DNA of 64,000 nt from an uncultured Pseudomonadales bacterium (GCA_964398365.1 CAYNMC010000037.1:7812-71811); one strand, 5' to 3'. Positions 9,298 through 51,730 are shown, numbered from the stretch's first letter. Notes: generated by a model not told the origin, from the sequence alone. Made by a program: numbers and translations.

Positions 9298-9325
9298 AAA
9301 AAAGTTTATTTCAGAAAAGCTAGCC

Positions 9326-9398: not shown

Positions 9399-9414
9399 CT
9401 CTTTTTTAAGCCAA

Positions 9415-10737: not shown

Positions 10738-10883
10738 TTTATCTTAAAATCTTTAAATCTTTACCACTTAAAAATTTGCTGAAGAAAAAAGGCAGGAAGC
10801 TTATTTAAATTATAGCATTTTTAATGTGCGACAGCTTCTTTTCGTTGTTTTCTTGCTAATTTTGAAGTAAAATTAGCCAAAGG

Positions 10884-10959
10884 GCGTCCGTAGCTCAACG
10901 GAGAGAGCGTCTGTCTTCGGAACAGAAGGTTGCGTGTTCGAATCACGCCGGACGCACCA
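10884..10959 (+). tRNA. tRNA-Arg (anticodon TCG), CCA encoded
   Basis: Acceptor GCGTCCG/CGGACGC, anticodon loop CTTCGGA, T-loop TTCGAAT and an ACCA tail. Confidence 0.9.
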
Positions 10960-10997
10960 AGAGAGGAATTTTGGGGAGAAGTTAAGCAGTTAAAAAA

Positions 10998-11073
10998 GGG
11001 TCCGTAGCTCAGTTGGTAGAGCACCTGCCTCTTAAGCAGGGTGTCGAGGGTTCGAATCCCTCCGGACTCACCA
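10998..11073 (+). tRNA. tRNA-Lys (anticodon CTT), CCA encoded
   Basis: Acceptor GGGTCCG/CGGACTC, anticodon loop CTCTTAA and T-loop TTCGAAT. Confidence 0.9.
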
Positions 11074-11801
11074 TTTGAAAAATTTCAAGTTCGCAGGGAA
11101 AGAGACTCAACACAACCCTGATTATTACAAACGCCGCAGTCACCCTCGGCAAAAGCAATTATTCTAGAGCGGAAATCGCTTGGGTTTTGAACATATCATA
11201 TAACATGAATAAGTTACGATACATTTGAGACTATATTTTATCTATCCAAGGATGCCTTAGAAGATTAACAGAGTGATTGAACCCTATCAAAAGAACATTA
11301 CAGGAAGATTTTATTGATCCTAATCTTTATCTTATCCATCAGCCTAAATTATTTAATGACAAGCTGGCAAAACATATCTGCTAACCTATAATATAATTCT
11401 GGAAAGACCGCATCATGCTTTAGAAGAAAAGCTAGCTGGGAAATATTTAGTTGCCAACGCATACAGGCAAAGGAACATTAGCTAAGCTGTTTGGTAATGA
11501 GGTTCAAGTAGATAGAGTAAAAGAGTTTACTAGCAAATCCTTGTTTTCAGGCAAAATGGCACTATTTAATTTTTGGTTAGAACTAAAAGATTTAATAAAT
11601 TTGTTAATCCCACTAGACCAAAATTACTCGGAAATAGTGGCTAAGCTTGATAATAAACTTAGTTCTTAGAATATGTCTAAAAGCAAAGGGCGGCAATGAT
11701 GGTGCACCGGAAAAATAAACAGAGAATAAGATAAACGAAAAGCTGGGGGCCAAAAAGAGCAATTAAACCATCCGCCTGACAGAGCTTATTTTAAGTAGGC
11801 T
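11074..11801. other. stretch of about 730 bp without an intact gene; possibly a degraded insertion next to tRNA-Lys
   Basis: Only short, stop-interrupted, protein-like fragments are present. Examples are ...SRAEIAWVLNISYNMNKLRYI (HTH-like), LNPIKRTLQEDFIDPNLYLIHQPKLFNDKLAKHIC, and the 72-aa ORF at 11451..11669. Confidence 0.35.
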
Positions 11802-37427: not shown

Positions 37428-39080
37428 TCAAATTTTTCCGGCAGCTTTCAAAAATTCTACAAAAATAGGGTGAGGAGCAAACGGCTTAGACTGATATTCC
37501 GGATGAAATTGTGTGCCTATAAAAAATGGATGTAACGTTTTGGGTAGTTCAATTGCTTCTACCAACTTGCCGTCGGGAGAAATACCAGAAAATCTCATGC
37601 CTTTACTTTCTAAAAGTTGACGATATTTCAGGTTAAATTCATAACGATGTCGGTGCCGCTCATAAATGATATCCCCAGAAAAGGGTTTTTTTGTCAACTG
37701 ACTATTTTTTTTATAAGTTTGCCAAAGAAAACTTTCCTTTTCAAGCCTGCAAGGCCAAACACCCAAGCGAATGGTACCCCCGTATTGTCTTTTAGCAAGA
37801 TAATTTTTTTGATCAGGCATAATATGAATTACCGGGTGCTTGGTTTTGGGATTAACTTCCGTCGAATTGGCATCTTTTAGACCGCAAACATGGCGGGCAA
37901 ATTCGATAATCGCCATCTGCATGCCAAAACATAAACCAAGATAAGGAATCTTTCTTTCGCGACTAAACTGAACGGCTTTAATTTTTCCTTCGACCCCTCG
38001 CGATCCCCAACCTTGAGGCACAATAATCCCGTCGGCTTCTTCTAAACCTTTAAAACCTTCCTTCTCACCCCTTTCACTGTCGTACCATAAAATTTGCACT
38101 TTTAAATTATTAAACCACGCTGCATGTTTAATCGCCTCAATAACAGAAATATAAGAATCTTCCAGTGAAAAATCGCCACTGGCATAATATTTCGCCACAA
38201 TGGCAATTTTAATTACTCTTTTTATGTTTTTTACTTTATCAATTAATTTCTGCCAATCAGTTAAATTTGGTTTTTTTAAAGGTAATTGGAGTTTCTTAAA
38301 AATTAACTGACTAAGTCCTTGTTTTTCCAAAATTAGAGGCGATTGATAGACATTATCTAAATCAGGACTAGAAATAATCGCTTGCGGTGGTAAGCCAGCC
38401 GCGAGGGCAATTTTTTTCTTGCGAATATTATCTACGGCTTTTTCGGAACGACAAATTATAAGATCCGGGCGAATACCAATACTGTTAAGCGACATAATTG
38501 ATTGTTGTATAGGCTTAGTTTTCATTTCACCAATATGCCGCGGTATAGGTAAATAACCAAGATGAAGAAAACAAACGGCCGCAGGTTGCTGAGCGGAAAG
38601 CATTCTCGCGGTTTCTAGAAAAACAATATTTTGATACTCGCCTACGGTACCGCCCAGTTCTACGACTAAAAAATCACAACTTTTAGCTACCTTTTTGAAC
38701 CGTTGAAGAATCTCATCTGATAAAAAGGGGAAAGCTTCAACGCATTTACCATGGTAGGCCAAGCTTCTTTCTTTTCTGAGTACTTCCCAATAAATTTTAC
38801 CGTTGGTAAGATAGTTATCTTCGGTGAGATTTTCTTCTAAAAATCTTTCATAATGACCAACATCTTGATCACATTCTTCTCCATCTTTGGTAACAAAAAT
38901 CTCGCCATGTTCAAAGGGATTCATCGTTCCCGCGTCAATATTAAGATACATGTCACATTTAAGTGGGGCTACTCTAAAACCTGCTCTTTTCAAAATTAAC
39001 GCCACCGAGGCAGTCACAATACCCTTTCCTAAACCAGAAAGTACTCCGCCGGTTACAAAAATATATTTAGTTAAAGCCAT
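37428..39080 (-). CDS. pyrG: CTP synthase
   Basis: KYIFVTGGVLSGLGKGI..., a glutaminase domain GLCFGMQ, and HRHRYE. Confidence 0.95.
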   Translation of the reverse strand: MALTKYIFVTGGVLSGLGKGIVTASVALILKRAGFRVAPLKCDMYLNIDAGTMNPFEHGEIFVTKDGEECDQDVGHYERFLEENLTEDNYLTNGKIYWEVLRKERSLAYHGKCVEAFPFLSDEILQRFKKVAKSCDFLVVELGGTVGEYQNIVFLETARMLSAQQPAAVCFLHLGYLPIPRHIGEMKTKPIQQSIMSLNSIGIRPDLIICRSEKAVDNIRKKKIALAAGLPPQAIISSPDLDNVYQSPLILEKQGLSQLIFKKLQLPLKKPNLTDWQKLIDKVKNIKRVIKIAIVAKYYASGDFSLEDSYISVIEAIKHAAWFNNLKVQILWYDSERGEKEGFKGLEEADGIIVPQGWGSRGVEGKIKAVQFSRERKIPYLGLCFGMQMAIIEFARHVCGLKDANSTEVNPKTKHPVIHIMPDQKNYLAKRQYGGTIRLGVWPCRLEKESFLWQTYKKNSQLTKKPFSGDIIYERHRHRYEFNLKYRQLLESKGMRFSGISPDGKLVEAIELPKTLHPFFIGTQFHPEYQSKPFAPHPIFVEFLKAAGKI

Positions 39081-39967
39081 TTTTTTATCCCTTCAACGAA
39101 GATTGGCGCTAAAGATAAAACGGTAAGCTTTTTTTCTGATTTTTGCTGCGGTGCAATACTATCAGTAACGATTACTTTATCAACCGAACTTTTGCTTAAA
39201 GCCGTAATCGCTTCTTTAAGATAAAGATGATGGGTAGCAAAAAAATAAACCGCTCTCGCGCCTTCCGCTTTAAGCGTCCGGGCGACGCTCACGACTGTCC
39301 GGCCGGTATTAATAAGATCGTCAAAAATCAAACAGGTTTTACCTTTAACTGGGGAAGAAATGCCATGAATAGTTAATTCGCCGGTGGCCCGATCCCGTTC
39401 TTTATCAATCGCTATCTGCTCAAGCTTTAAATCTTGAGCAAAAAGACGCGAACGTTTCATCGCACCAAAATCAGGACTGACAACCACGGCATTATTTTTG
39501 ATTTCTTTTTTAATATAATCAACAAAAAGTTGGCGGGCTGAATAATGCATCACCGGTATTTCAAAAAACCCGGCAACACTATCATTGTGTAAATCCACGG
39601 TGAAAATACGCGCCACGCCGCTGGCAGAAATCATTCGGCTAATAACTTTGGCGGCAATTGGTTCACCAGTGCGAAAAACTTTATCTTGCAAAGAGTAAGC
39701 CAGCCACGGTATAATGGCAAAGATTTTAGCGGCGCCAGCCCGTACCAAACCGTCAATGATCAGTAGTAATTCAATAATCATGCTGTTGGGAAAAGGTGAA
39801 AAACTTTGCACCACGACGCAATCCTGACCATTAACATCTTCTTTAATCCAAACACGAGCTTCACCATTGGGAAATTTAGAGAGTTCTAAATTGCCCATTT
39901 TTATCTTTAATATTTTGGCAATTTTTTTGGCTAAAGGTTGATTTGACGAACCACTAAAAATTTTCAT
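39071..39967 (-). CDS. prs: ribose-phosphate pyrophosphokinase
   Basis: MKIFSGSSNQPLAKKIA...VVSPDFGAMKR...IFDDLINTGRT. Confidence 0.9.
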   Translation of the reverse strand: MKIFSGSSNQPLAKKIAKILKIKMGNLELSKFPNGEARVWIKEDVNGQDCVVVQSFSPFPNSMIIELLLIIDGLVRAGAAKIFAIIPWLAYSLQDKVFRTGEPIAAKVISRMISASGVARIFTVDLHNDSVAGFFEIPVMHYSARQLFVDYIKKEIKNNAVVVSPDFGAMKRSRLFAQDLKLEQIAIDKERDRATGELTIHGISSPVKGKTCLIFDDLINTGRTVVSVARTLKAEGARAVYFFATHHLYLKEAITALSKSSVDKVIVTDSIAPQQKSEKKLTVLSLAPIFVEGIKKWL

Positions 39968-40573
39968 TTAAACCCTTGTTTTCTTCAGAAATTCTAAGAC
40001 CTCTTGATATTTTTTAAAACTGATTTTCCCTTTTTTCCACAAAATCTCTAAGACTTTGGTGAGGTAAAAAACCGCATGTACTTGATAACCTTTGGCTGCT
40101 AATTTTTCAGCACCACCTTGTTCTCTATCAATTAAAATTACCACATCTTTCACTTTTAATCCCGAAGCCACCAATGGCTTAATTACCATTAGTTTACTCT
40201 CACCTGTAGTAATAATATCATCAATGACAACCACTTGTTCACCCTTTTTATATTCCCCTTGAACCAATTTGCTCACACCATAGCCTTGAGCTTCTTTACG
40301 CGTATAAACGAGAGGCTGCTGGTAAATTACACTGATGACACTGGCAATAGGTAAAGCAGCATAAGGGACCGCCGCTAGACGGTCAAAGCTTAATTTTTTG
40401 ATGAGTGTCCAATAAGCCGCAGCACATTTCCTCATTAAAGAAGGATAAGAAACCAATTTTCTAAGATCAATATAAATAGGGGAAATAATACCTGATTTGA
40501 GTTTAAAAGAACCAAGCTCAATACATTTATTTTTAAAAAGAGCTAAAAGTAGTTTTTCTGATTTTGAACCCAT
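39968..40573 (-). CDS. pyrE: orotate phosphoribosyltransferase
   Basis: FKLKSGIISPIYIDLR...VVVIDDIITTGES. Confidence 0.85.
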   Translation of the reverse strand: MGSKSEKLLLALFKNKCIELGSFKLKSGIISPIYIDLRKLVSYPSLMRKCAAAYWTLIKKLSFDRLAAVPYAALPIASVISVIYQQPLVYTRKEAQGYGVSKLVQGEYKKGEQVVVIDDIITTGESKLMVIKPLVASGLKVKDVVILIDREQGGAEKLAAKGYQVHAVFYLTKVLEILWKKGKISFKKYQEVLEFLKKTRV

Positions 40574-40582: not shown

Positions 40583-41416
40583 TTAACAATATTTATTAAT
40601 TAAATTTTTTAGGGCTTGAGTTTTTTCTCTCGCTTGCTGAGCAAAATCTTTGGCACTTGAAGCAAAAATAATGCTGCGGCTAGCATTTATAATCATTCCT
40701 CTTCCATTACTATCTTTTCCTGCTTTAACGGTGATGGCTACTTCACCTCCTTGGGCACCAATACCGGGAATCAAGAGCGGCATCTGGCCGGCAATTTTTC
40801 TAACCGCTGCCAATTCTTTGGGGTAAGTAGCACCCACAACCAAGGCACAATTTTTATTTTTATCCCAATATTTGACCACACGATGGGCAACAATCTTATA
40901 GAGAGGAAGCCGACCAAACTCCTGGTCGTTCACGATTAAATCCTGAAATTCAGCCGCCCCGGGATTAGAAGTTCGGCATAAAACGATAACCCCTTTATCT
41001 TTTCTGGTCAAAAAGGGCCTTAACGCCTCCTCTCCTAGATAAGGATGAACCGTAAGGGCATCAAATTTAAAATAATCAAAAATGGCCTTAACATAACCCA
41101 GGTTGGTATTATCAATATCTGCCCTTTTGGCATCAGCAATAATCAGGATCGAGGGATCTTTTTTCTTAATATAAATCACGGTTTTCCTTAAAACCTCCAT
41201 ACCTTTGGGACCTTCCGCTTCATAAAAAGCAAGGTTTGGCTTATAAGCGCAGACCAAATCATAAGTAGCCTCAACAATTGCCTGATTAAAAGCAAAAATC
41301 GGTTCAGCTTTTTTTAAAAGGTGTTTAGGTAGCTTGCTTATATCACTGTCTAAACCCACACAAACGCAGGAATGCTTTTTGGTAATGATCTCGTCTACTT
41401 TTTTTTGAAAATTCAT
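40583..41416 (-). CDS. pyrF: orotidine 5'-phosphate decarboxylase, type 2
   Basis: VCVGLDSD...YKPNLAFYE...IADAKRADIDNT...PGIGAQGG...NASRSI. Confidence 0.85.
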   Translation of the reverse strand: MNFQKKVDEIITKKHSCVCVGLDSDISKLPKHLLKKAEPIFAFNQAIVEATYDLVCAYKPNLAFYEAEGPKGMEVLRKTVIYIKKKDPSILIIADAKRADIDNTNLGYVKAIFDYFKFDALTVHPYLGEEALRPFLTRKDKGVIVLCRTSNPGAAEFQDLIVNDQEFGRLPLYKIVAHRVVKYWDKNKNCALVVGATYPKELAAVRKIAGQMPLLIPGIGAQGGEVAITVKAGKDSNGRGMIINASRSIIFASSAKDFAQQAREKTQALKNLINKYC

Positions 41417-41940
41417 GTTTTATTTTCGTTAATTTTACTCACTGCCAATTCCAAGAAAATTAGAGTGCAAAGTTCAAAGAGAGATTTAGTTGGGGATCTT
41501 TCCGGCACACCAATAAGTTCTCTCAATTGATACTGGTTACCCAGTCGCCTAGGAATTTTTGCCGGAATTAAAACTAAAAGGTGAGAAATTTTAGCCAAGG
41601 GGGAATCAGCGGTGCCGCTAAGGCTCAAAATTCTCGCTCCCAAAACTCTCGCAATTTTTACGGCGCTTAAAACGTCGCCAGTTTCTCCAGAACCAGAGAT
41701 GGCTATGAGTAAATCATTGGCGTTAATTTTTGGCGTAATTGTCTCGCCGATAACAAAAGTTGTTTTTGACAATCTCACTAAACGCATGGCCAAATATTTA
41801 GCTACTAAACCGGACCTGCCAGCACCCACTACATAAATACGTTTAGCTTTTTTAATTTCGTTGATAAAAAGCTCAAGATCCCTTTCGCGGATATTCACCA
41901 AAACTCTTTTGAGTTCCTTTAAAATTTCTCTAAATAACAT
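41413..41940 (-). CDS. hxlB: 6-phospho-3-hexuloisomerase (SIS domain)
   Basis: RIYVVGAGRSGLVAKYLAMRLVRL...IGETITPKINANDLLIAISGSGETG is the typical PHI pattern at 175 aa. Confidence 0.75.
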   Translation of the reverse strand: MLFREILKELKRVLVNIRERDLELFINEIKKAKRIYVVGAGRSGLVAKYLAMRLVRLSKTTFVIGETITPKINANDLLIAISGSGETGDVLSAVKIARVLGARILSLSGTADSPLAKISHLLVLIPAKIPRRLGNQYQLRELIGVPERSPTKSLFELCTLIFLELAVSKINENKT

Positions 41941-41946: not shown

Positions 41947-42675
41947 TTAAGCTGGCCAGTAGTCAAAAACCGGCCCATCTTTACAAATCCGCTGACCGCC
42001 ACGACTACAAGAACCACATACACCGAAACCGCATTTTATCAGTGCCTCTAAGCTCAATTGATATTTTATTTTAAACTTATCGCATAATTGAGCGATTTTT
42101 GCAAGCATCATTTCTGAACCACAACTGTAAACGCAACTGACTTTATTTTTGGCTAGTATGTCGGCTAATAAATCGGTGATAAAACCTTTAAACCCCAAAG
42201 AACCATCATCAGTACTTACTTTTATTTTTAAACCTAAAGCCTTAAACTTTCGCCTAAAAAGTAATTCTTTTTTCGTCTTAGCACCGAGAAGCACCCTTGA
42301 AGCCTTTTTACCCTTAAGTTTTTTGGCTAAAAAATATAAAGGCACCGCCCCGCAACCTCCAGCCACGAGTATTTTTTTACCTTTTACTTCCTGAAAAACT
42401 CCGTCACCAAAGGGACCTCGATACCAAATTTTATCACCCGGCTTAAGTTTTTGATTGATCGTCCTTGTAAACTTGCCCACTTCCCGAACCGTAAAGGTTA
42501 AAGGATTATTATCAGTTAAAGAAAAAGGTTTTTCCGCTACGCCTGGCAACCACACCATGATAAACTGACCGGGTAAGGCTTCAATTTTTTGTTTAGTAAT
42601 AAAGGTTTTGGTTTCAAAATTTTCTTGAATAACCCGTTTAACTACAACTGCTTTTGGTAAACTTATCTTGTTCAT
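41947..42675 (-). CDS. pyrK: dihydroorotate dehydrogenase electron-transfer subunit
   Basis: An FAD/NAD-binding fold plus the C-terminal 2Fe-2S motif CGFGVCGSCS. Confidence 0.85.
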   Translation of the reverse strand: MNKISLPKAVVVKRVIQENFETKTFITKQKIEALPGQFIMVWLPGVAEKPFSLTDNNPLTFTVREVGKFTRTINQKLKPGDKIWYRGPFGDGVFQEVKGKKILVAGGCGAVPLYFLAKKLKGKKASRVLLGAKTKKELLFRRKFKALGLKIKVSTDDGSLGFKGFITDLLADILAKNKVSCVYSCGSEMMLAKIAQLCDKFKIKYQLSLEALIKCGFGVCGSCSRGGQRICKDGPVFDYWPA

Positions 42676-43600
42676 AGGCTAACCCCCTAAATTCTTTTAA
42701 AGATTGATATTGATGTTCTGCCATAAATTTTTTTATTTCCCCAGTTAAGTGAGTAAAAACTTCTATTCCTCTTAAATAAACGGCTGAACCTACACCAACA
42801 GCTGTTGCGCCGGCCATAATCATCTCGACAGCATTTTCTCCATAAGTAACACCGCCTATACCGATGATGGGAATTTTAACTACTCGGGCAATTTCGTAAA
42901 CACAACGGACAGCCACCGGTTTAATCGCCGGACCAGAGATCCCGCCTACTTTATTACTCAAAATCGGCTTGGCAGCTTCAAGATCAATGATCATCCCCGG
43001 TCCAACCGTATTAATTGCCGAGATGGCATCGGCACCAGCCTTCTCAACCTCCAAGGCAACCTGATTAAGGTGAGGTGTCATATGGGTCAATTTGGCAATG
43101 ATCGGAATTTTTTTGACTCTTTTTTTGACCTCCAAAACTGCCATGGCCGCCAAAAGAGGATCGATACCAAAGGGTTTACCAAACTCATCATCATTATTGG
43201 GACAAGAAAGGTTTAACTCAATAAAGTCTGGTTTTGCCTGGCTGATTTGTTCAGCAGTTTTACCGATATCCTCGATCGTGGGGCCAAAGATACTGGCAAT
43301 AATAAGCACTTGTGAGTCTTTTAATAACTTTTTCAACTTGATGATTTTTGCGGCTTCTTTTTTCACCCCCTCGTTGGTTAAACCGACGGCATTAATCAAC
43401 CCCTTTTCCCAAGCCAAAACCGTGGGATTTTCATGACCTTGACGGGCTTCAAGAGAACAAGACTTAGTCGTCACTGCCCCCAATCCTGTTTTGGCTACCC
43501 TTGCCAACAATTCTGGCTCAGTACCTAAAATACCTGAAGCTAAGATTAAAGGGTTTTTTAATTTTTTACCGCAAAGGTTAACGGAAAGATCCAACTTCAT
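42638..43600 (-). CDS. pyrD: dihydroorotate dehydrogenase catalytic subunit (class 1B)
   Basis: NPLILASGILG...LNLSCPN...GGISGPAIKP...IGIGGV. Confidence 0.9.
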   Translation of the reverse strand: MKLDLSVNLCGKKLKNPLILASGILGTEPELLARVAKTGLGAVTTKSCSLEARQGHENPTVLAWEKGLINAVGLTNEGVKKEAAKIIKLKKLLKDSQVLIIASIFGPTIEDIGKTAEQISQAKPDFIELNLSCPNNDDEFGKPFGIDPLLAAMAVLEVKKRVKKIPIIAKLTHMTPHLNQVALEVEKAGADAISAINTVGPGMIIDLEAAKPILSNKVGGISGPAIKPVAVRCVYEIARVVKIPIIGIGGVTYGENAVEMIMAGATAVGVGSAVYLRGIEVFTHLTGEIKKFMAEHQYQSLKEFRGLAYEQDKFTKSSCS

Positions 43601-44655
43601 AATAATTTTCCTGAACCTTTTTTGGCCAAAATTTGACCATTTTCAAAAACTTTTTTACCTCTTATAAAAACGCTGATTAATTTACCCTTCATTAACCAAC
43701 CAGCAAAAGGTGACCAACCACATTTAGTTTTTAATGCTTTAATTTTTAGTCGCCAACTTCTTGTCAAATCTACTTCTATCCAAGAATTTTTATCAATTTT
43801 AATACCAAAAAGTTCTGCGGGTTTATAACACATCAGTTCTTTTAATCTTTTTAGGCTTAATTTTTTCTTATTTACCGCTGTCAACATTAAAGGTAAAGCT
43901 GTTTCCAAACCAGGTATACCATTGGGTGGTTCTTTTGATTTTTTCTCCTCCACGGTATGCGGTGCATGATCGGTTGCCAAGATATCAATCGTACCGTCAT
44001 TCACTGCCTGCCAAAGTGCTTGCTGATCTTTTTTGGTGGCTAGTGGTGGCCGCATCTTAGCAAAATTCCCTAAAGATTTTTCGTCTTTATTAGTCAAAAA
44101 GAGATAATGAGGTGCGGTTTCGCAGGTAATTCTTACTCCTCTTTTTCGTGCCTGTTTTACTAACTCAAGCTCACTTGCTTGATTAAGATGACAAACATGA
44201 AGCCATTTTTGATAAAGCCAAGCAAAAGTAATTGCCTTGGCCAAGGTTGAGTCTTCAGCATGAACCATGATCGGTTTCTCTTTAGGCCAAAAACGAAAAT
44301 GATTTCTCAGTACCTCTAAGTTTTCGATTAATAAAGGACCTGTCGTCTGGTTCATAAAAATCTTTAAACCATAAGTTTTTTTTGAGGCCTTTTTGTGACT
44401 ACCCCAATTATTTTGGTCGGCCCCAAAATGAAAGCCGACATCACAGACAATTTTTTTGGCGGCTAATCGCCTTTTTTCAGCCAATGCAGTCAAGGAAGTC
44501 GTCGGTTGAGAATTGTTGGGCATATCGATCACCTTCACATAACCGCCGGCCAAAGCCGCGCTGGTGCCGCTGTAAAAATCTTCTTTATAAATGGCTCCCG
44601 GTTCTCTTAGATGCACATGACAATCAATTAAACCGGGCAAACGCAAAAGCTTCAT
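43597..44655 (-). CDS. pyrC: dihydroorotase (short form, 352 aa)
   Basis: LPGLIDCHVHLREPG...ATDHAPH. Confidence 0.85.
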   Translation of the reverse strand: MKLLRLPGLIDCHVHLREPGAIYKEDFYSGTSAALAGGYVKVIDMPNNSQPTTSLTALAEKRRLAAKKIVCDVGFHFGADQNNWGSHKKASKKTYGLKIFMNQTTGPLLIENLEVLRNHFRFWPKEKPIMVHAEDSTLAKAITFAWLYQKWLHVCHLNQASELELVKQARKRGVRITCETAPHYLFLTNKDEKSLGNFAKMRPPLATKKDQQALWQAVNDGTIDILATDHAPHTVEEKKSKEPPNGIPGLETALPLMLTAVNKKKLSLKRLKELMCYKPAELFGIKIDKNSWIEVDLTRSWRLKIKALKTKCGWSPFAGWLMKGKLISVFIRGKKVFENGQILAKKGSGKLL

Positions 44656-45620
44656 CTGTCTAATAAAATTAATCTTAATAAAGCCATTCTAGTATATAAG
44701 CCGTTTCTCATTTGCGAAAAATAAACAGCTCGAGGATCATTATCTATTTCCTCGGCAATTTCACCCACTCGAGGAAGTGGATGCATAATAATCATTTTCT
44801 TTTTGCTTTTTTGCAGAATCCTTTGGTTAATAATAAAGCTATTTTTTAATTGCTGATAAAGCCTCAGTTTACCTTTCTGTTCAAACCATTCTTTCTGAAC
44901 GCGAGTCACATACAAAACATCGGTTGAAGATAAACATTCCTCTAGATTTTCTGTCTGGTGAATTTTTACCTGTTTGTTTTTAAGCCACTGACTTTCTAAA
45001 TTTGGCAGTTTCAAAACTTTTGGCGCCACGAAATTCATGGTTAAATTTTTGGCATAATAAGTCAAAAGTTTGGCTAGGGATTTTACCGTTCTGCCATATT
45101 TCATATCGCCTACAAAAGTAATATTTAAACCTTGCAAATTTGAGAAGTGCTGAATTAAGGTATAAAGATCTAAAACGGCTTGGGTGGGATGTTCTTTGGT
45201 GCCGGAACCGGCATTAATTATGGGAATCGAAGCATATTTGGCAGCAATCTCACTGGCATCATCAGCCGGGTGTCGTAAAATAAGTAAATCGGCTGCCGTG
45301 GTTTGTTCGACAGTTCTGACGGTATCGGGTAAACTTTCACCTTTAACCGCCGAAGAATAAGCCTGCATTCCATGAATAGGAATAACTTTGGCACCCAGAT
45401 GAAGGCCGGCAGCCAAAAAAGAAGTATAGGTCCTGGTAGATGGTTGGTAAAAAAGTTCCACTAAACAAAAAGTTTTCAAATCTTTAATTATTCTTCTTTT
45501 TTCAATTTTTTCTTTCATTTGATCAGCTAGAGTAAAAATTTTATCCAATTCTCTTTTATGGCTAAATTGTTCGACGGAAATAAAATCTTTATGATAAAAA
45601 TTATTATTCAATTTCTGCAT
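44652..45620 (-). CDS. pyrB: aspartate carbamoyltransferase catalytic subunit
   Basis: STRTYTSF...HPTQAVLD...HPLPRV. No pyrI gene is adjacent. Confidence 0.9.
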   Translation of the reverse strand: MQKLNNNFYHKDFISVEQFSHKRELDKIFTLADQMKEKIEKRRIIKDLKTFCLVELFYQPSTRTYTSFLAAGLHLGAKVIPIHGMQAYSSAVKGESLPDTVRTVEQTTAADLLILRHPADDASEIAAKYASIPIINAGSGTKEHPTQAVLDLYTLIQHFSNLQGLNITFVGDMKYGRTVKSLAKLLTYYAKNLTMNFVAPKVLKLPNLESQWLKNKQVKIHQTENLEECLSSTDVLYVTRVQKEWFEQKGKLRLYQQLKNSFIINQRILQKSKKKMIIMHPLPRVGEIAEEIDNDPRAVYFSQMRNGLYTRMALLRLILLDR

Positions 45621-46458
45621 TGTTATCTAAATGATTAATCTCTTCTTTTATTTTTTTTGCCACGGCCGCTGGCTTTTTGGCAAAAATCACCATGCGCGAA
45701 GCGTTAACTAAAATATTATTTTTTTCTTTATTAATGATGGGCCTTAAATCCTTTACTTTACCTCCCTGCGGTCCTAAACCGGCTATTAAAATCAAACTCT
45801 CGTTTCCCGCAATTTGCCTAATTCTTTTTAAGTCTAAAGGATAGGTTAAAGGTCCCTCACAAAAAACATTACCGTTTTTATTCCAGTGATTGACAACTAA
45901 ATCAGTCACATATTCATAAAGTTTCATTTTTTGCTTTCGCTGCTTAATTACCAAATCTTGAATCTCACCGGCGCTCGGATTAGAATCTTTACACAAAACA
46001 AAAACGCCCTTGTCCCGGTATTTAAGATAAGGTTCTATCGTATCAAAACCAAACCAGGGAGTTACTGTTAAAGCATCAAAATTAAATTCTTCAAAAATCT
46101 CCCGCGCGGCTAACTTGCCACTTCTTTGCATCTCGCTGCGCTTACAATCAGCGATTAAAGGAATTTCAGGATAATTTTTCTTAAGGTAGAAAGTCGTCTC
46201 AGCTAAGGCTTTTAAACCTGATAAGCCATAACCGGCATAAAAGACTAAATTTAATTTAAAAGCAGCAGCAAACTCCGCGGTATCCTGAACAATTGAGCGG
46301 TTAAATAAAAAAATTCCCTCCCGGGGACCATATCTTTTAAATTTTAAAGGAAGTTTAGCAAAGTCAGAATCTAAGCCGACACATAACAAGGAGTTAATTT
46401 TTTCAATTCTCCTTCTAATTTTTTCTTTAAAGGTCAGTGTGTCGATAATGTTCTTCAC
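45604..46458 (-). CDS. second, diverged OMP-decarboxylase-family paralog (type-2 PyrF-like)
   Basis: LCVGLDSD...FKLNLVFYA...IADCKRSEMQRS (canonical DxKxxD becomes DxKxxE)...AGLGPQGG...NASRMV. The GTG start overlaps the upstream gene by 32 nt. Confidence 0.7.
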   Translation of the reverse strand: MKNIIDTLTFKEKIRRRIEKINSLLCVGLDSDFAKLPLKFKRYGPREGIFLFNRSIVQDTAEFAAAFKLNLVFYAGYGLSGLKALAETTFYLKKNYPEIPLIADCKRSEMQRSGKLAAREIFEEFNFDALTVTPWFGFDTIEPYLKYRDKGVFVLCKDSNPSAGEIQDLVIKQRKQKMKLYEYVTDLVVNHWNKNGNVFCEGPLTYPLDLKRIRQIAGNESLILIAGLGPQGGKVKDLRPIINKEKNNILVNASRMVIFAKKPAAVAKKIKEEINHLDNNAEIE

Positions 46459-47242
46459 TAATTGTGTGTCCTAAATTTATTGCTTTTGCTCTTAAATCAG
46501 CCGCGGTGATTCCATTTGCTGGTGGTATATGAATTTCTTCAGGATTAACTTCTATACCTTGCGATGCTATCGCCCTTGTTTTAAGAGGATTATTAGTAAC
46601 TAAGCGTATATTTGTAGCTCCTAATTGTTTTAAAATCTCTCCGGCAACGGAAAAATCACGACATTCTGAAGGCCAGCCGGCTTTTTTATAAGCTCGATCA
46701 GTATCAATTCTCGCGTTAGTTTCCTGATCACGGCGTTGGACAATTTTTCCCTCTCTCCATTCAAACATTTCATTTAATTGAACAACCTTCCCCACCACGC
46801 CATTCCCTCGTCCTTCCTGAGCAAGATAGATAATTACACCACGCCTTTCTTTTTGAATTTGTTCCATTGTTTTCTGAAGTTCTGCTAGGCATTCACAATT
46901 AATGGCGCCAAAGGTTTCGTTGGTTTGACAAGCAGAATGAATTCTTACGAGAATACCCTTTGGCAATGAGTCTTCTATCTTAAAATTGCCAAAAACTAAA
47001 ACTTCATGATAAACCCCGCAAGTTAAATCAACAAAGATAATATAAGTCCAGTCACCCCTCTCGGTAGGTAAAGGAGCCCTAATCAATTCCTTTACCAAAG
47101 GTAAACCCTGAGCCTTTAATTCTTTTTTCCTTCTTGCTATTGTCTGCCATGGCACTAAAATTTTTTCAATTATTTCCTCTGTTTTTTCATCAACCCCCGA
47201 CGGTATTTCTCCAATATTTTTTATTAATTCAGGTAATCCCAT
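46427..47242 (-). CDS. divergent GTP cyclohydrolase II (RibA)-like protein with an N-terminal extension of about 50 aa
   Basis: VRIHSACQTNETFGAINCECLAEL keeps the three zinc Cys. RRGVIIYLAQEGRGNG and ECRDFSVAGEILKQLGATNIRLVTNNPLK are also present. There is an insertion of about 17 aa where RibA has the IRAYALQ segment. Confidence 0.7.
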   Translation of the reverse strand: MGLPELIKNIGEIPSGVDEKTEEIIEKILVPWQTIARRKKELKAQGLPLVKELIRAPLPTERGDWTYIIFVDLTCGVYHEVLVFGNFKIEDSLPKGILVRIHSACQTNETFGAINCECLAELQKTMEQIQKERRGVIIYLAQEGRGNGVVGKVVQLNEMFEWREGKIVQRRDQETNARIDTDRAYKKAGWPSECRDFSVAGEILKQLGATNIRLVTNNPLKTRAIASQGIEVNPEEIHIPPANGITAADLRAKAINLGHTISEEHYRHTDL

Positions 47243-47247
47243 ATTTT

Positions 47248-47274
47248 AAAAAAGAGCCGTCGTCAGCGGCTCTT
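47248..47274 (-). terminator. terminator/attenuator hairpin ending 5 nt before the ATG at 47242
   Basis: The minus strand reads aagagccg-ctgacga-cggctctt followed by more T residues, then aaaatATG. The stem has 8 bp. Confidence 0.6.
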
Positions 47275-47343
47275 CAACTTTGCTTTAAAAGCAAAAACAA
47301 GGATAATCTTAAGGTTTAATTCTTTTTTAGTTTTTTGCTCCAT
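47263..47343 (-). CDS. candidate 26-codon leader ORF (MEQKTKKELNLKIILVFAFKAKLKSR)
   Basis: The ATG follows the U7 run of the upstream hairpin directly. The TGA stop lies in the loop of the downstream terminator hairpin. There is no clear Shine-Dalgarno sequence. Confidence 0.2.
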   Translation of the reverse strand: MEQKTKKELNLKIILVFAFKAKLKSR

Positions 47344-47370
47344 AAAAAAACCCAGCATTTAGGTTCTGGG
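47344..47370 (-). terminator. hairpin plus U7 downstream of carB
   Basis: The minus strand reads cccag-aacctaaatg-ctggg followed by ttttttt. The stem is short at 5 bp. Confidence 0.45.
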
Positions 47371-47375
47371 ATTTT

Positions 47376-47405
47376 ATCCTACCAAAAAGCTTAAAGGTTT
47401 GTCAA
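47376..47405 (-). promoter_or_regulatory. possible promoter TTGACA-18-TAGGAT between the carB stop codon and the first hairpin
   Basis: On the minus strand, TTGACA is at 47405..47400 and TAGGAT at 47381..47376. Confidence 0.3.
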
Positions 47406-47429
47406 GTTCCAAATTTTATCTTTATGAGG

Positions 47430-50400
47430 TCAACGATATTCATCCCAACTTTTAATCTTTAAATCAGTAAGTTTTTTTTGACTCATTGCTTTGGTAAAAG
47501 TGATCGCATTTTCTAGATTGGTAATTAAAGGAATATTAAAATCAACCGCTTTTCGACGAATAAGATAACCTTCATAACTTGCCGATTTTGACGGAAAGGT
47601 AAAATTTCTTTTTCGACTAATGTTGATTACTAGCTCCACTTGCTTATTTTCAATCAGTTCAAGAATTTGAGGTTTTTTTCTCTCTTTAGATTTATAAGCT
47701 TTAATAATTTTTAAGCCATTTTTAATTAAAAAATCAGCGGTACCAGGAGAAGCATAAAGGCAAAATCTTCGAGCAAGCATTTTTGCGCTCTTTAAGAATA
47801 AATTTTTATTCTCTTTACCTCCTAAGCTTAATAAAATTGATTTTTTGGGCAGTTTTATGCCAGCGGCTAAAACAGATTTTAAATAAGCCTCATAAAAATC
47901 TTCACCCAAAGCAGCAATCTCACCAGTAGAAGCCATTTCCACCCTTAAAACAGGATCAGCACCCCGAAGTCTGGTAAAGGAAAACTGGGGAGATTTAATT
48001 CCCAACCACGATAAATTAATCTCCGGATAAACTTTAAGTTTTTTGCCAAGCATGGCGGCAATTGCCAAGTCGACAAAATTAATTTTACTTACTTTCGAAA
48101 CAAAGGGAAAAGAACGGGAAGCTCTTAAATTACATTCAATTACCATAATTTTATTATCTTTAATCAAATACTGAACGTTAAAAGGACCAGTAATCTTTAA
48201 AGCACTGCTGATTTTTTTAGTAATTTCTACCAATCGCTTCTGGAGAGAATTGGTTAAATAGTAAGGGGGAAAAACCAAAGTAGCATCGCCGGAATGAACA
48301 CCGGCATTTTCTATATGTTCAGAAATTGCCTGAATAATAACTTTACCTTTTTGGGCTACTCCATCAACATCAATTTCTTTAGCATTCTCAATAAATTTAC
48401 TTATCACCAGAGGATATTTTCGGGAAACAACCAGACTTCTGAATAAAAATTTTTCTAAATCTGATTTTTGCTGAGCCACAAACATTGCTGTTCCAGATAA
48501 AACATAGGAGGGTCTTACAAGGACTGGAAAACCAATTTTCTGAGTATAAGCAAAGGCTTCTTCTTTGTGACTAAAACTTTGCCATGGAGGTTGAAAAATT
48601 TTCAAAGAATCCAAAAGTTGAGAAAATTTATGGCGATTTTCTGCCTTATCAATTGCGCTTGCTGGTGTTCCCAAAATGGGAATTTTAAGTCTAGTTAACT
48701 CTTTCGCAAGATTATTGGCAATTTGACCACCAAAGGAAAGCACTAAAGCATCCGGTTTTTCCAACTGGCAAATATCAGCAATTTTCTCAAAAGTTAATTC
48801 TTCAAAATAAAGTTTATTGCCAATATCAAAATCGGTAGAAACGGTTTCGGGATTACAGTTAACCATAATCGTTTGCCAACCAGCCTTCAGCAAAGCCCAC
48901 GCTGCATGAACCGCACACCAATCAAATTCCACTGAAGAACCAATACAATAGGGACCAGAACCAAGAATTAAGGCTTTTTTCTGCTTGTTTTTTAAAAAAT
49001 TAAAATCGTGTTTCCCTTGTTGGTAACTTAAATACAAATAATTAGTCTTAGCGGGAAACTCCGCGGCGACCGTGTCTATCTGTTTCACTTTTGCGAGAAT
49101 TTGTTTTTTTTGTCTTATTTTTCTAATCTCACTTTCTTTCCTCTCCCATTTCTGGGCTAAATATTCATCAGAAAAACCCAAAATTTTAGCTTTTTTAAGG
49201 AGCTGAGAGTTAAAAATGCCGATCTTTTTATCAAAATTAACCAACTCCTTAATCTGCTGCAAAAACCAACAATCAATAGCGGTAAGTTTATTAACAATTT
49301 CAATGGTTACTCCTTTACTCAGGGCTGCCGCAAGCGCAAAAAGCCGTTTGGGAGTAGGCTCCTTTAATTCTTTTTTAAGTTCCCTTAAACTTTTGTTTTT
49401 AAACTCACGATAAAAAGAATCCAACAACCCATTTTGGTTGATACCCAGCATTCTGATTGCTTTTTGTAGGGCTTCGGGAAAATTGCGCCCTAAGGCCATC
49501 ACCTCACCCACGCTTTTCATCTCCGTACCTAAATTTTTGCCAACTTCTTTAAATTTTTCTAAATCCCAACGGGGAACTTTAAGGGCCAAATAATCCAATG
49601 CTGGTTCAAAAAAAGCTGTGGTTTTTTTAGTAATTTTATTTTTTAATTCAAAAAGCGAGTAACCCAAAGCAAGTTTCGTCGCCACAAAGGCTAAAGGGTA
49701 ACCGGTAGCCTTAGAAGCTAAAGCAGAAGAACGAGATAAACGAGCATTAACTTCGATAATCCGATAATCAAAAACACGAGGATTAAGGGCAAACTGAATA
49801 TTGCACTCGCCCACGATACCCAAATAACGAATAAGTTTGATGGCCAAATTCCGCAAGGTTTGATATTCAAAATCATTTAAAGTTTGAGAAGGAGCCACCA
49901 CAATACTTTCGCCGGTATGAATTCCCATCGGATCAAAATTCTCCATGTTGCAAATTGTTAAACAATTATCATCCTGATCACGAATAACCTCGTATTCGAT
50001 TTCCTTCCAGCCTCCAAGGTATTCTTCAATTAAAACTTGAGGACTAATTGATAAAGATTTTCTTAACGCTTCTTTAAACTCCTTCCGGTTAGTCACCAGT
50101 TTAGAACCCAAACCTCCCAAGGCAAAACCAGCCCGCAAAATTGCAGGAAAACCAATCTTTTCAATTGCCGGAATGCCTGCTTTTAAATTACTAATGGCAA
50201 TACTTTTTGGTGTCAATAGATTCGCTTTTTTCAGGCAATCTACAAAAAACTGTCTGTCTTCGGTCTTTAGAATTGCTTCGATCGGCGTACCTAAAACCCG
50301 AACTTTAAATTTTTCAAAAACCTTTTCTTTCGCAAGTTGTAAACCGCAGTTTAAAGCCGTTTGGCCACCAAAACCAAGCAATATTCCCTGAGGTCTTTCT

Positions 50401-50657
50401 TTTTTGATAACTTTGGTGACAAAATCAGCCGTTACTGGTAGAAAATAAATTTTATCAGCCAATTTCGCCGAAGTTTGAATAGTAGCAATGTTGGGATTAA
50501 TTAAAATGGTTTCCAAGCCCTCTTCTTTTAATGCCTTTAAGCATTGAGAACCAGAATAATCAAATTCGCCGGCTTCACCAATTTTAATTGCCCCAGAACC
50601 AAGAACTAAAACTTTTTTAATTTTCAAATGGAAATTTCTTCTTACCGAGGAAATCAT
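47430..50657 (-). CDS. carB: carbamoyl-phosphate synthase large subunit
   Basis: 1075 aa with duplicated ATP-grasp halves (KKVLVLGSGAIKIGEAGEFDYSG and KKALILGSGPYCIGSSVEFDW). Confidence 0.95.
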   Translation of the reverse strand: MISSVRRNFHLKIKKVLVLGSGAIKIGEAGEFDYSGSQCLKALKEEGLETILINPNIATIQTSAKLADKIYFLPVTADFVTKVIKKERPQGILLGFGGQTALNCGLQLAKEKVFEKFKVRVLGTPIEAILKTEDRQFFVDCLKKANLLTPKSIAISNLKAGIPAIEKIGFPAILRAGFALGGLGSKLVTNRKEFKEALRKSLSISPQVLIEEYLGGWKEIEYEVIRDQDDNCLTICNMENFDPMGIHTGESIVVAPSQTLNDFEYQTLRNLAIKLIRYLGIVGECNIQFALNPRVFDYRIIEVNARLSRSSALASKATGYPLAFVATKLALGYSLFELKNKITKKTTAFFEPALDYLALKVPRWDLEKFKEVGKNLGTEMKSVGEVMALGRNFPEALQKAIRMLGINQNGLLDSFYREFKNKSLRELKKELKEPTPKRLFALAAALSKGVTIEIVNKLTAIDCWFLQQIKELVNFDKKIGIFNSQLLKKAKILGFSDEYLAQKWERKESEIRKIRQKKQILAKVKQIDTVAAEFPAKTNYLYLSYQQGKHDFNFLKNKQKKALILGSGPYCIGSSVEFDWCAVHAAWALLKAGWQTIMVNCNPETVSTDFDIGNKLYFEELTFEKIADICQLEKPDALVLSFGGQIANNLAKELTRLKIPILGTPASAIDKAENRHKFSQLLDSLKIFQPPWQSFSHKEEAFAYTQKIGFPVLVRPSYVLSGTAMFVAQQKSDLEKFLFRSLVVSRKYPLVISKFIENAKEIDVDGVAQKGKVIIQAISEHIENAGVHSGDATLVFPPYYLTNSLQKRLVEITKKISSALKITGPFNVQYLIKDNKIMVIECNLRASRSFPFVSKVSKINFVDLAIAAMLGKKLKVYPEINLSWLGIKSPQFSFTRLRGADPVLRVEMASTGEIAALGEDFYEAYLKSVLAAGIKLPKKSILLSLGGKENKNLFLKSAKMLARRFCLYASPGTADFLIKNGLKIIKAYKSKERKKPQILELIENKQVELVINISRKRNFTFPSKSASYEGYLIRRKAVDFNIPLITNLENAITFTKAMSQKKLTDLKIKSWDEYR

Positions 50658-51730
50658 TTCTTAGCAAAAAATTCTATTTTTTTTACAAATTCTTGAAACA
50701 CCCAAAGAGTATCGGTGGGACCAGGACAACCTTCAGGATGAAACTGGACTGCCATAAAAGGAAATTTTTGATGGATAATCCCTTCATTGGTACCATCATT
50801 TAAATTAACGAACCATTCCTGCCAGCCTCTTGGCAAACTCTTTTTTTCAACGGCATAACCATGATTTTGACTGGTAATATAGGCACGGCGTTGACCCACC
50901 AATAAAACCGGCTGATTAACAGAACGATGTCCATATTTCATTTTATAAGTTTTGGCACCAGCGGCCAAAGCCAACAATTGATTACCTAAACAAATTCCCA
51001 AAATCGGTAATTTTTTAAACATTAACTTTTGAATAAACTTAATGGTTTTTTTAAGAATTTGCGGATCTCCTGGCCCATTACTGATTACCACCCCATCGAT
51101 CTCACTGTCAATAAAATCGTAATCCCAAGGAACGCGTTTAATTGTTAAGCCTAAACGATAAAGAGCTCTTAGAAGTCCCATTTTGACACCGCAGTCTATC
51201 AGGAGAATTTTTTTATCACCATTTTTATAAATTATTGGCTTCCGACAAGAAGTTTCCCTTACCCAAGAGTTAGTAATTTTCTGCTTTAACTGCTCACCAA
51301 TCAAGCCACAAGTTGAAATTTTACCCATCATTGTTCCTTTTTCTCGCAGTCTTTGGGTTAAACTACGCGTATCAATTTCTGTTAAGCCGGGAATTTTATT
51401 TTCTGCCAAATATTGATCCAATGTCTTTTTGGCTTCTCGATGAGAAAGATCATTAATCAGCGAAGAAACAATTAAACCTCTAACTTGAATTTTTTCTGAC
51501 TCAAAATTTTGAATCATTTGCTTTTTAAACACGGGCAAGGGCACACCATAATTACCAATCAAAGGATAGGTAAAAGTAAGAATTTGGCCAGCGTAAGAAG
51601 GATCTGTGAGGCTTTGAGGATAACCAGTCATGGCGGTATTAAAAACTACTTCTCCTTCAGCCTCACCCACGTAACCAAATAATTTACCCACAAAAACCGT
51701 CCCGTCTTCAAGATACAAAGATCCTTGCAT
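50654..51730 (-). CDS. carA: carbamoyl-phosphate synthase small (glutaminase) subunit
   Basis: GICLGNQLLA...VQFHPE. Confidence 0.95.
   Translation of the reverse strand: MQGSLYLEDGTVFVGKLFGYVGEAEGEVVFNTAMTGYPQSLTDPSYAGQILTFTYPLIGNYGVPLPVFKKQMIQNFESEKIQVRGLIVSSLINDLSHREAKKTLDQYLAENKIPGLTEIDTRSLTQRLREKGTMMGKISTCGLIGEQLKQKITNSWVRETSCRKPIIYKNGDKKILLIDCGVKMGLLRALYRLGLTIKRVPWDYDFIDSEIDGVVISNGPGDPQILKKTIKFIQKLMFKKLPILGICLGNQLLALAAGAKTYKMKYGHRSVNQPVLLVGQRRAYITSQNHGYAVEKKSLPRGWQEWFVNLNDGTNEGIIHQKFPFMAVQFHPEGCPGPTDTLWVFQEFVKKIEFFAKK

Follow-up and report, generated by a model that had tools for sequence, protein, structure and literature searches.

In a 64,000-nucleotide stretch of DNA from an uncultured Pseudomonadales bacterium (GCA_964398365.1 CAYNMC010000037.1:7812-71811; hereafter the window), a gene for a divergent homolog of GTP cyclohydrolase II (GCHII; RibA) overlaps a gene for a second, diverged type-2 orotidine 5′-monophosphate (OMP) decarboxylase (OMPDC), which we call PyrF2. 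This pairing is conserved: among 32 loci with a PyrF2-type gene, 27 have a GCHII-family gene in the same fetched locus. PyrF2 itself belongs to a discrete and constrained subfamily, seen almost exclusively in the Candidate Phyla Radiation (CPR, or Patescibacteria). The pairing and the subfamily appear to be new, while both superfamilies and the logic of the uracil-catabolism (URC) pathway were already known; a literature search returned no account linking a GCHII homolog with an OMPDC paralog, nor one of a DxKxSEM subfamily. The two proteins very probably work in a common pathway, distinct both from riboflavin synthesis and from plain OMP decarboxylation. More tentatively, and with somewhat less than even confidence, we propose that they are consecutive enzymes of a new URC-like route for pyrimidine nucleotides, found almost only in CPR bacteria.

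A GCHII-family gene accompanies PyrF2 across CPR loci

PyrF2 loci were collected by a one-genome-per-species scan with PyrF2-specific peptide patterns (24 loci) and by contig look-up (three more). Because retrieval used PyrF2 patterns only, the presence of a partner was not selected for, and the three look-up loci agree with the pairing. The five loci without a GCHII-family gene were two cut at or near a contig end (L014 and L023), two in doubtful non-CPR bins (L024 and L027) and one with a truncated PyrF2 (L026). The partner lies directly upstream of PyrF2 on the same strand in 15 loci, with gaps of -32 to +30 nt, and the overlaps among these pairs include ones of 4, 4, 20, 29 and 32 nt. In the window, the overlap of 32 nt with the GTG start of PyrF2, noted in the sequence-only reading, was read again from the sequence; this GTG is the earliest start codon in its reading frame, and the overlap suggests translational coupling. 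In the Roizmanbacteria type, the partner leads a convergent operon of GCHII, haloacid dehalogenase (HAD) and PfkB genes.

Two observations concern individual loci of this set. In the Roizmanbacteria-type loci a conserved 286-aa protein (c14) without a family match fills the slot immediately upstream of PyrF2 that the GCHII gene takes in most other loci (L030, 7131-7991; also L007, L008 and L026). The PyrF2-type genes of L024 (10037-10882) and L027 (6630-7199) are on contigs binned as Oscillospiraceae and Clostridiales, and neither has usable context; the L027 copy is truncated and apparently decayed (AGCKRSEM). These genes may reflect mis-binning or horizontal transfer out of CPR.

A type-2 OMPDC subfamily with its own active-site signature

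PyrF2 contains the three motifs that had been picked out from the sequence, DCKRSE (104-109), GLGPQGG (227-233) and NASR (252-255), and its signature residues are D104-x-K106-x-S108-E109-M110, T133-P-W135-F136, D158-S159-N160, E201, A226, Q231 and R255. It is 40% identical to the canonical PyrF (DAKRAD), whose gene was located 5 kb downstream as the sequence-only reading had said. On the curated pyrF model TIGR02127, PyrF2 scored 181.3 bits (E=2e-53; cut-off 110.6). Since this score beats the cut-off, an automated pipeline would call PyrF2 pyrF.

A DxKxxE motif of the SEM or AEM type was found in 115 of the 120 best PyrF2 matches (DCKRSEM in 86). The best matches are 43-63% identical to the window PyrF2, above its own canonical paralog. 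A profile search that covered 1.84 billion representatives (clustered at 50% identity) separated the two groups clearly: in its top 150, DxKxxE goes with PWFG and/or DSN, and every other recognisable motif is DxKxxD.

We then compared diagnostic positions in an alignment of 122 PyrF2-type and 124 canonical type-2 OMPDCs. Glu109 and Glu201 are invariant in the subfamily (122/122 each), whereas the canonical enzymes have Asp at the first position (124/124) and Val at the second (117/124), with an acid at the second in none of the 124. Trp135 is also invariant (122/122; canonical Tyr, 111/124). Asp158 occurs in 119/122 (canonical Thr, 109/124), Ser108 in 119/122 (canonical Gly or Ala), Thr133 in 119/122 (canonical Asn, His or Ser) and Ala226 in 107/122 (canonical Pro, 119/124). 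Common to both groups are D30, K68, D104, K106, S159, N160, Q231 and R255.

Residue roles were mapped through the alignment and the published M. thermoautotrophicum numbering. We take Glu109 to occupy the position of Asp75′, a partner-subunit residue at the ribose 2′-OH, and Glu201 that of Val155, in the hydrophobic pocket beside the substrate carboxylate. Asp158 presumably precedes the serine that reads N3 and O4 of the base (Ser159, equivalent to Ser127), Ala226 is presumed to stand at the Pro180 position, and we regard Gln231 and Arg255 as equivalents of Gln185 and Arg203, which make phosphate-gripper and base-edge contacts. In the AlphaFold2 model (pLDDT 91.2) PyrF2 is a TIM barrel in which Asp158 follows beta5 and Glu201 lies at the C-terminal end of beta6, on the catalytic face. 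The best PDB matches of the model by Foldseek were type-2 OMPDCs, and PDB titles among the fold matches name OMPDC mutants at I96, F100, T159, V182 and Y206. PyrF2 thus appears to keep the phosphate, ribose and acid-base machinery, with a C5/C6/carboxylate pocket that would be rebuilt around two acids.

The sequence-only reading had also raised the idea that PyrF2 replaces 3-hexulose-6-phosphate synthase (HPS), which is a member of the OMPDC suprafamily; it would then work with a 6-phospho-3-hexuloisomerase (PHI)-like SIS-domain protein to give ribulose-5-phosphate for phosphoribosyl pyrophosphate (PRPP). The gene string of the pair does include prs and a gene that scores 150 bits on the PHI model (cut-off 160), and no HPS was seen among the window open reading frames (ORFs) scanned. 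However, the PHI-like gene occurs in the window only, with no homolog in 28 related loci. PyrF2 is 40-44% identical to type-2 PyrF, has a nucleotide-type phosphate and ribose site, and at E<=0.01 matched pyrF models only and no model of HPS or 3-keto-L-gulonate 6-phosphate decarboxylase (KGPDC). Because the conserved partner of PyrF2 is a GCHII-family gene and not the PHI-like SIS gene, the HPS role is not supported, and we consider it extremely improbable.

A GCHII-family protein distinct from RibA

The 271-aa product of the first gene matches the GCHII family PF00925 with 127.8 bits (E=4e-37), which puts the family assignment far past chance. Every motif listed by the sequence-only reading was found: HSAC (102-105) and NCEC (115-118), with zinc ligands C105, C116 and C118; EGRG (143-146); RDF (195-197), whose R195 aligns with Arg128 of E. 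coli RibA, a residue in contact with the alpha-phosphate and the proposed nucleophile in pyrophosphate release; and LVTNNP (214-219), with K221 beyond it. The zinc motif of RibA is CX2GX7CXC (PMC10366380); its spacing is kept (C105-x2-N-x7-C116-x-C118), with Gly replaced by Asn. The N-terminal extension, put earlier at about 50 aa, measures about 47 aa (residue 51 aligns with residue 4 of E. coli RibA), and the insertion, put at about 17 aa, spans 16-18 aa at about 157-174. The reported lack of a counterpart to the RibA tyrosine was likewise borne out, with Leu156 in the column of E. coli Tyr105. This tyrosine reportedly hydrogen-bonds the zinc water and is needed for ring opening and formate release.

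The protein falls below every curated RibA and RibBA cut-off (NF001591, 118.4 vs 148; TIGR00505, 107.7 vs 205.85). A search of 5.8 billion proteins yielded about 93 relatives at 50-64% identity, every named one from CPR, and below this window-type clade came a gap down to RibA at 36% or less. Members of the clade conserve the three zinc cysteines, the counterpart of Arg128, the EGRG loop and the TNNP..K motif, and they share an invariant Leu at the Tyr105 column and the inserted segment GMFGWxDGKIEQ. In a rough neighbour-joining tree of catalytic cores, RibA formed one clade and the window type its own clade beside it. Together with the identity gap, this places the protein outside orthodox RibA. 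The AlphaFold2 model (pLDDT 90.8) showed the extension as a long helix (19-44) and the insertion as a beta-hairpin (160-169), and its best Foldseek matches were E. coli and H. pylori RibA, followed by the UTP cyclohydrolase structures 7EEV and 7EJ3. The fold searches of both models confirmed the expected folds and gave no pointer to a substrate. Comparison of RibA and UrcA residues for base specificity (for example at the N118 column) was dropped, as the column varies among partner types.

No riboflavin genes were found near this protein: a local tblastn search with approximate query sequences of E. coli RibB, RibD, RibH, RibC and RibF gave no match in the window or in 29 related loci, and none of ten further window ORFs scanned against Pfam matched a riboflavin or HPS family, in agreement with what the sequence-only reading had said of the window. 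The Pfam neighbour lists of the related loci also contained no ribB, ribD, ribH or ribE.

The GCHII-family partners of PyrF2 are heterogeneous, with at least seven sequence types of 256-567 aa. These include the window type, a type closer to RibA, forms with a degenerate second GCHII-like domain, forms with an N-terminal domain of about 300 aa from an unmatched family, and one HAD-like fusion. All 22 aligned partners nevertheless keep [HD]-S-x-C...C-x-C and the equivalents of Arg128 and Lys154, and Tyr at the Y105 column was found in 0 of 30 CPR sequences as against 13 of 13 RibA sequences, and also in UrcA, the GCHII homolog of uracil breakdown. The partners therefore look putatively active yet not like RibA. 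The type found in L006, L008, L010 and L018 groups weakly with a UrcA fragment in the neighbour-joining tree. In L006 (1901-3148) and L018 (8736-10010) the N-terminal half carries a degenerate second Cys motif (CPGGYFDLDCGCG), an architecture that suggests a tandem GCHII-like duplication. In L009 (8267-9970) one protein combines the GCHII domain with a HAD-like DxDxT domain; Roizmanbacteria encode the latter as a gene of its own (L030, 9620-10411).

These data bear on the plainest explanation, an ordinary divergent ribA next to a redundant OMPDC isozyme, with adjacency an accident of compact genomes. PyrF2 does pass the curated pyrF model, databases name its relatives OMP decarboxylase, the change of Asp to Glu is conservative and the PF00925 match is good. 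Such an accident would have to recur in at least 27 loci from many CPR lineages, however, and it fits poorly with substitutions that are invariant and subfamily-specific, including an acid in the CO2 pocket that no canonical enzyme shares. A canonical pyrF is also present in the fetched locus (within 10 kb) in eight loci. On the GCHII side, the scores below all RibA cut-offs, the missing Tyr105 (30/30) and the lack of riboflavin genes in the window and the 29 loci likewise speak against the misplaced ribA that the sequence-only reading had left as an option. We regard this explanation as very improbable.

Neighbouring genes of pyrimidine metabolism

In the window the pair sits between carB and pyrB, and canonical pyrD, pyrK, pyrE or pyrF lie within 10 kb in eight loci. 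A bona fide uridine kinase (NF004018, 273 bits vs a cut-off of 180) is among the neighbours, with PRK/Udk-family matches in six loci. UMP kinase genes adjoin GCHII-like or PyrF2 genes in L001 (294 bits), L023 (168 bits) and L053 (162 bits). The L001 enzyme is a bacterial-type PyrH, and those of L023 (1129-1830) and L053 (4274-4978) are archaeal-type, above a cut-off of 158; a further archaeal-type candidate in L034 (4708-5517) scored a weaker 70.7. A dTMP kinase gene is present in five loci, directly upstream in several, and prs lies directly downstream in L032 as well as in the window string.

A short PfkB kinase occurs in 13 of the 32 PyrF2 loci and a phosphatase-type HAD protein in 7. The best PDB match of the PfkB protein was the M. 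jannaschii MJ0406 sugar kinase, a weak one (E=1.5e-8); we take MJ0406 to be a nucleoside kinase. Other neighbours are phosphoribosyltransferases, purine nucleoside phosphorylase (PNP)/UDP phosphorylase, nucleoside hydrolase, adenosine deaminase and a cytosine-deaminase-like amidohydrolase. In the annotated loci no gene of the riboflavin, folate, pterin, queuosine or thiamine pathways is adjacent, and no purine-specific nucleoside monophosphate kinase (guanylate or adenylate) was noticed among the neighbours examined.

Where PyrF2 does not follow, the window-type GCHII-like gene is followed by a 423-aa protein with a small HAD and PfkB (five loci), by an archaeal-type UMP kinase or by nothing recognisable. 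The 423-aa protein (k3) has no family match and is found in L036 (4517-5788) and in L037-L040, before the small HAD and a convergent PfkB. In L001 an unrelated 291-aa protein (X291; 10855-11730) comes after the window-type gene. Both proteins may be non-homologous replacements of PyrF2. L036 (3293-3628, minus strand) encodes a conserved, zinc-ribbon-like protein (LYQKDGPGILKRLYxDRI; about 111 aa, two CxxC pairs) that has homologs in 14 loci (for example L001 9540-9902 and L002 8748-9077). Its gene usually lies immediately upstream of a window-type GCHII-like gene and is read in the opposite direction. Neither Pfam nor NCBIfam offers a match, and the window lacks the protein, which might act as a regulator or as a partner. 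In L004 of Levybacteria (4372-10000), a lone window-type gene stands next to about 4 kb without called genes, which a LAGLIDADG endonuclease ORF follows; the arrangement probably represents an rRNA gene with an intron.

A proposed URC-like route and its alternatives

The sequence-only reading had listed a new ring-opening or salvage step among its options, with URC1 as the precedent, and the conserved pairing, the distinct subfamilies and the pyrimidine neighbours favour it. From the pairing, the subfamily signatures and the gene neighbourhoods, which were all observed directly, we infer a substrate and two reactions as follows. Uridine kinase and UMP kinase would supply UTP, the likeliest substrate of the GCHII-like enzyme. 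In the GCHII family a conserved Arg acts in pyrophosphate release, and a zinc-activated water opens the base beside the glycosidic nitrogen (PMC10366380). The GCHII-like enzyme would accordingly release pyrophosphate from a pyrimidine nucleoside triphosphate through this Arg, and its zinc-bound water would cleave the ring bond that adjoins the glycosidic nitrogen, giving a ring-opened 5-phosphoribosyl-ureido compound. UrcA, the one family member of known function besides RibA, carries out a two-step hydrolysis of UTP in uracil breakdown (PMC9499338). Since the GCHII-like enzyme lacks the Tyr used by RibA and UrcA, it may stop after the first hydrolysis. Its product would be a 5′-monophosphate with an N-H at the former glycosidic nitrogen and, if derived from UTP, a ureido group.

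PyrF2, which keeps the contacts for the 5′-phosphate, the ribose, O2 and N3, would bind this monophosphate and complete its breakdown. In the version that we prefer, it would cleave the labile N-ribosyl bond to give ribose-5-phosphate for PRPP synthetase and a urea or acyl-urea fragment. PyrF2 would in that case be the functional counterpart of URC4, which breaks ribosylurea down to urea in the URC pathway of yeast (PMC7530994). Alternatively, PyrF2 might decarboxylate the ring-opened intermediate. It is possible, though doubtful, that PyrF2 is the first type-2 OMPDC offshoot with a different reaction, a C-N cleavage or other conversion of a ring-opened 5-phosphoribosyl-ureido intermediate, and that it defines, with the Tyr-less cyclohydrolase, a CPR pathway of ring opening and ribose-phosphate recovery. 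Imidazole products (CAIR/AIR) and pterin products were set aside, as thiamine, purine and folate pathway genes are not adjacent.

Several observations weigh against the URC-like route. By sequence and structure the window enzyme is nearer to RibA, which uses GTP, than to UrcA, and purine-related genes (adenosine deaminase, PNP, GuaA) are neighbours in some loci. Breakdown of UTP within an operon for UMP biosynthesis looks futile. No gene for handling urea or malonic semialdehyde was recognised nearby, and none of the neighbours without a Pfam or NCBIfam match (c14, X291, k3, u336 and u404) was recognisable as URC4 (DUF1688). The full catalytic Asp/Lys set retained in PyrF2 suits a decarboxylase no less than it suits a C-N lyase. 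The partners are also extremely divergent, with a median identity of 23% in their cores as against 46% for PyrF2. Pairwise identities of PyrF2 and partner core correlated weakly (r=0.18, Mantel p ~0.01), and co-divergence was not used as evidence because this signal is probably driven by close relatives. Finally, linkage is weaker in the reverse direction. Among non-duplicate metagenome loci found with window-type GCHII patterns and having at least 700 nt of downstream sequence, PyrF2 follows the window-type gene in only about 3 of 22. Conservation of the pair among relatives, a point of the sequence-only reading, thus holds from the PyrF2 side, as PyrF2 nearly always adjoins some GCHII-family gene, and not from the side of the window-type gene. 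As the latter frequently has no PyrF2 beside it, the partnership need not be an obligate one.

Some of these points would suit a purine version, in which the GCHII-like enzyme acts on GTP and would probably stop at the formamido product. PyrF2 would then cleave an N-ribosylamine 5′-phosphate to ribose-5-phosphate and an aminopyrimidine, or carry out an Amadori-type step toward a pterin- or flavin-like product. Precedents exist for such a stop: archaeal GTP cyclohydrolase III ends its reaction at the formamido product, and a Streptomyces GCHII with Met at the Tyr position reportedly yields that product only. RibA enzymes are the closest characterised relatives by sequence and fold, the window-type clade lies beside the RibA clade in the rough tree, the two new acids of PyrF2 would suit an amino-rich base, and a few loci have a gene for FolD, DHFR, SHMT, adenosine deaminase or GuaA nearby. 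We consider this version unlikely, however. The kinases of the neighbourhood are pyrimidine-specific (Udk, PyrH, Tmk), genes of the folate, pterin, queuosine and riboflavin pathways are adjacent in no annotated locus, and Q231 and S159, which read O2 and N3/O4 of uracil, are retained in PyrF2.

The futile-cycle objection falls away if the pair instead serves nucleotide sanitation, destroying a non-canonical or modified pyrimidine nucleotide that the symbiont scavenges from host RNA or DNA turnover. Pseudouridine, 5-substituted or deoxyuridine nucleotides would be candidates; pools would be kept clean and the ribose phosphate recovered. Genes for NUDIX and HD-domain proteins, deoxynucleoside or thymidine kinase (dNK/TK), Tmk, ThyA, dCMP deaminase and ribonucleotide reductase adjoin the pair in several loci, PfkB proteins resembling nucleoside kinases and HAD proteins resembling nucleotidases are the next commonest neighbours, and L009 has the GCHII-HAD fusion. 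The change of Asp75′ to Glu also falls, by alignment and numbering, on the 2′-OH contact of OMPDC, and E. coli RibA is said to hydrolyse 8-oxo-dGTP. Nevertheless, no result indicates a specific substrate, and the strong conservation and the position in a core biosynthetic operon suggest mainstream flux; sanitation is in our view distinctly unlikely.

The gene string of the window

In the window the pair is part of a tight minus-strand gene string that runs from dnaE to the distal pyrimidine genes (Table 1). The PHI-like SIS gene overlaps pyrF by 4 nt within the pyr operon. The window has a GC content of about 38%, and its nearest relatives are labelled Cerribacteria, Levybacteria, Gottesmanbacteria, Roizmanbacteria and similar; composition and relatives point to an affinity with CPR/Patescibacteria, probably the Microgenomates group.

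Table 1. Genes and intervals of the pyrimidine gene string in the window, in the order of transcription
Feature	Position	Strand	Remarks
dnaE		minus	upstream end of the tight gene string, before carA
carA	50654-51730	minus	ORF and family search; upstream of the pair, same strand
carB	47430-50657	minus	named from ORF translation only; upstream of the pair, same strand
carB/pair spacer	47243-47429	minus	187 nt
GCHII-like gene	46427-47242	minus	271 aa, ATG start; ORF call
GCHII-like/PyrF2 overlap	46427-46458	minus	32 nt, read from sequence
PyrF2 (type-2 OMPDC paralog)	45604-46458	minus	284 aa, GTG start; ORF call
pyrB	44652-45620	minus	downstream of the pair; above NCBIfam cut-off
pyrC	43597-44655	minus	best models all dihydroorotase; just under cut-off (TIGR00857, 277.3 vs 279.05)
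pyrD	42638-43600	minus	above NCBIfam cut-off
pyrK	41947-42675	minus	above NCBIfam cut-off
SIS-domain PHI-like gene	41413-41940	minus	between pyrK and pyrF; TIGR03127, 150 bits vs cut-off 160
canonical type-2 pyrF	40583-41416	minus	DAKRADI, VVGAT, PGIGAQGG; TIGR02127, 252.6 bits
pyrE	39968-40573	minus	distal part of the same gene string
prs	39071-39967	minus	distal part of the same gene string
pyrG	37428-39080	minus	named from ORF translation only

The spacer between carB and the pair contains a sigma-70-like site (47405->47376, TTGACA-18-TAGGAT with an extended TG) that matches the consensus at 10 of 12 positions, the top score across the 19-kb region scanned and one shared by five sites in all. 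A first hairpin (47370-47351), followed by U7, comes directly after this site, and a second, GC-rich hairpin (about 47275-47251), followed by U6, ends 9 nt 5′ of the ATG of the GCHII-like gene. The fold z-score of the spacer is -2.3, and it matched no Rfam family. The hairpins look like a putative terminator or UTP-sensitive attenuator. A 26-codon ORF (MEQKTKKELNLK...) covers the stretch between them. Because the promoter-like site and the hairpins lie between carB and the pair, the pair may head a transcription unit of its own. The sequence-only reading had put the pair at the head of the pyr operon; the promoter-like spacer is compatible with this, but on this strand carA and carB come before the pair.

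Some CPR pyr clusters have no carAB nearby (L028, 12315-15983; L007, 14776-17460). They carry an argininosuccinate-synthase-like protein and methylglyoxal-synthase (MGS)-like fusion, a protein like dimethylarginine dimethylaminohydrolase (DDAH) or arginine deiminase, and a PRK06886-type cytosine-deaminase-like amidohydrolase beside uridine kinase. These genes may provide an alternative carbamoyl source or another branch of pyrimidine salvage.

Implications and comparison with known systems

OMP decarboxylase is the textbook case of extreme catalytic proficiency. With the catalytic Asp/Lys residues kept and a strictly conserved Glu in the CO2 pocket, PyrF2 is a natural probe of how this active site can be retuned. 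Annotation pipelines name such proteins "OMP decarboxylase" and "GTP cyclohydrolase II". The metabolic capacity reconstructed for CPR/Patescibacteria may therefore be overstated, with the initial reaction of riboflavin synthesis and a second pyrF perhaps credited to these organisms in error. If the URC-like route is correct, a pathway known mainly from yeasts would extend to ultra-small symbiotic bacteria, with a bearing on how they balance scavenged nucleotides against ribose phosphate.

The GCHII-like enzyme shares with RibA (EC 3.5.4.25; PDB 2BZ0) the fold (TMt 0.85, 27-31% identity over the core), the spacing of the zinc Cys triad, the equivalents of Arg128 and Lys154, and the EGRG loop. 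It differs in having Leu for Tyr105, the N-terminal helix of about 47 aa and the beta-hairpin insert of about 17 aa, and in being linked to an OMPDC paralog and pyrimidine genes rather than to riboflavin genes. For the loss of the Tyr, we take the Streptomyces coelicolor GCHII paralog, with Met at that position, and archaeal GTP cyclohydrolase III as analogies from other clades; we know of no OMPDC partner reported for the Streptomyces paralog.

UrcA/URC1 (PDB 7EEV, 7EJ3) has the same GCHII-family core (Foldseek probability 1.00, TMq 0.58-0.59), and with URC4 it offers the logic proposed for the pair, namely opening of a pyrimidine nucleoside triphosphate by one enzyme and processing of the resulting ribosyl-ureido compound by the next. 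In yeast the pathway relies on conversion of uridine or uracil into a nucleotide (PMC7530994, PMC9499338), a need that the uridine kinase and UMP kinase genes near the GCHII-like and PyrF2 genes match. UrcA has about 420 aa in two domains and retains the Tyr, whereas the window enzyme, at 271 aa, has one domain and lacks this residue. On the PRK07198 model (NF005536) it reached 36.6 where the cut-off is 403, and by sequence it matched 7EJ3 at E=1e-4 only. The second enzyme has the OMPDC fold instead, and no homolog of URC4 (DUF1688), urea amidolyase or URC8 was seen at these loci.

KGPDC and HPS are cases in which the OMPDC barrel was recruited for other reactions; both are short, Mg-dependent enzymes of sugar phosphates, whereas PyrF2 branched off recently from type-2 PyrF and has a site of the nucleotide type. 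With type-2 PyrF (TIGR02127; PDB 3QW3, 2ZA1) it shares the barrel (TMq 0.82-0.85), a score above the family cut-off and the residues D30, K68, D104, K106, S159, Q231 and R255. It departs from type-2 PyrF in the changes of Asp75′ to Glu, Val155 to Glu, Thr to Asp before the base-binding Ser, Pro180 to Ala and Tyr to Trp, and in coexisting with a canonical pyrF while being coupled to a GCHII-family gene.

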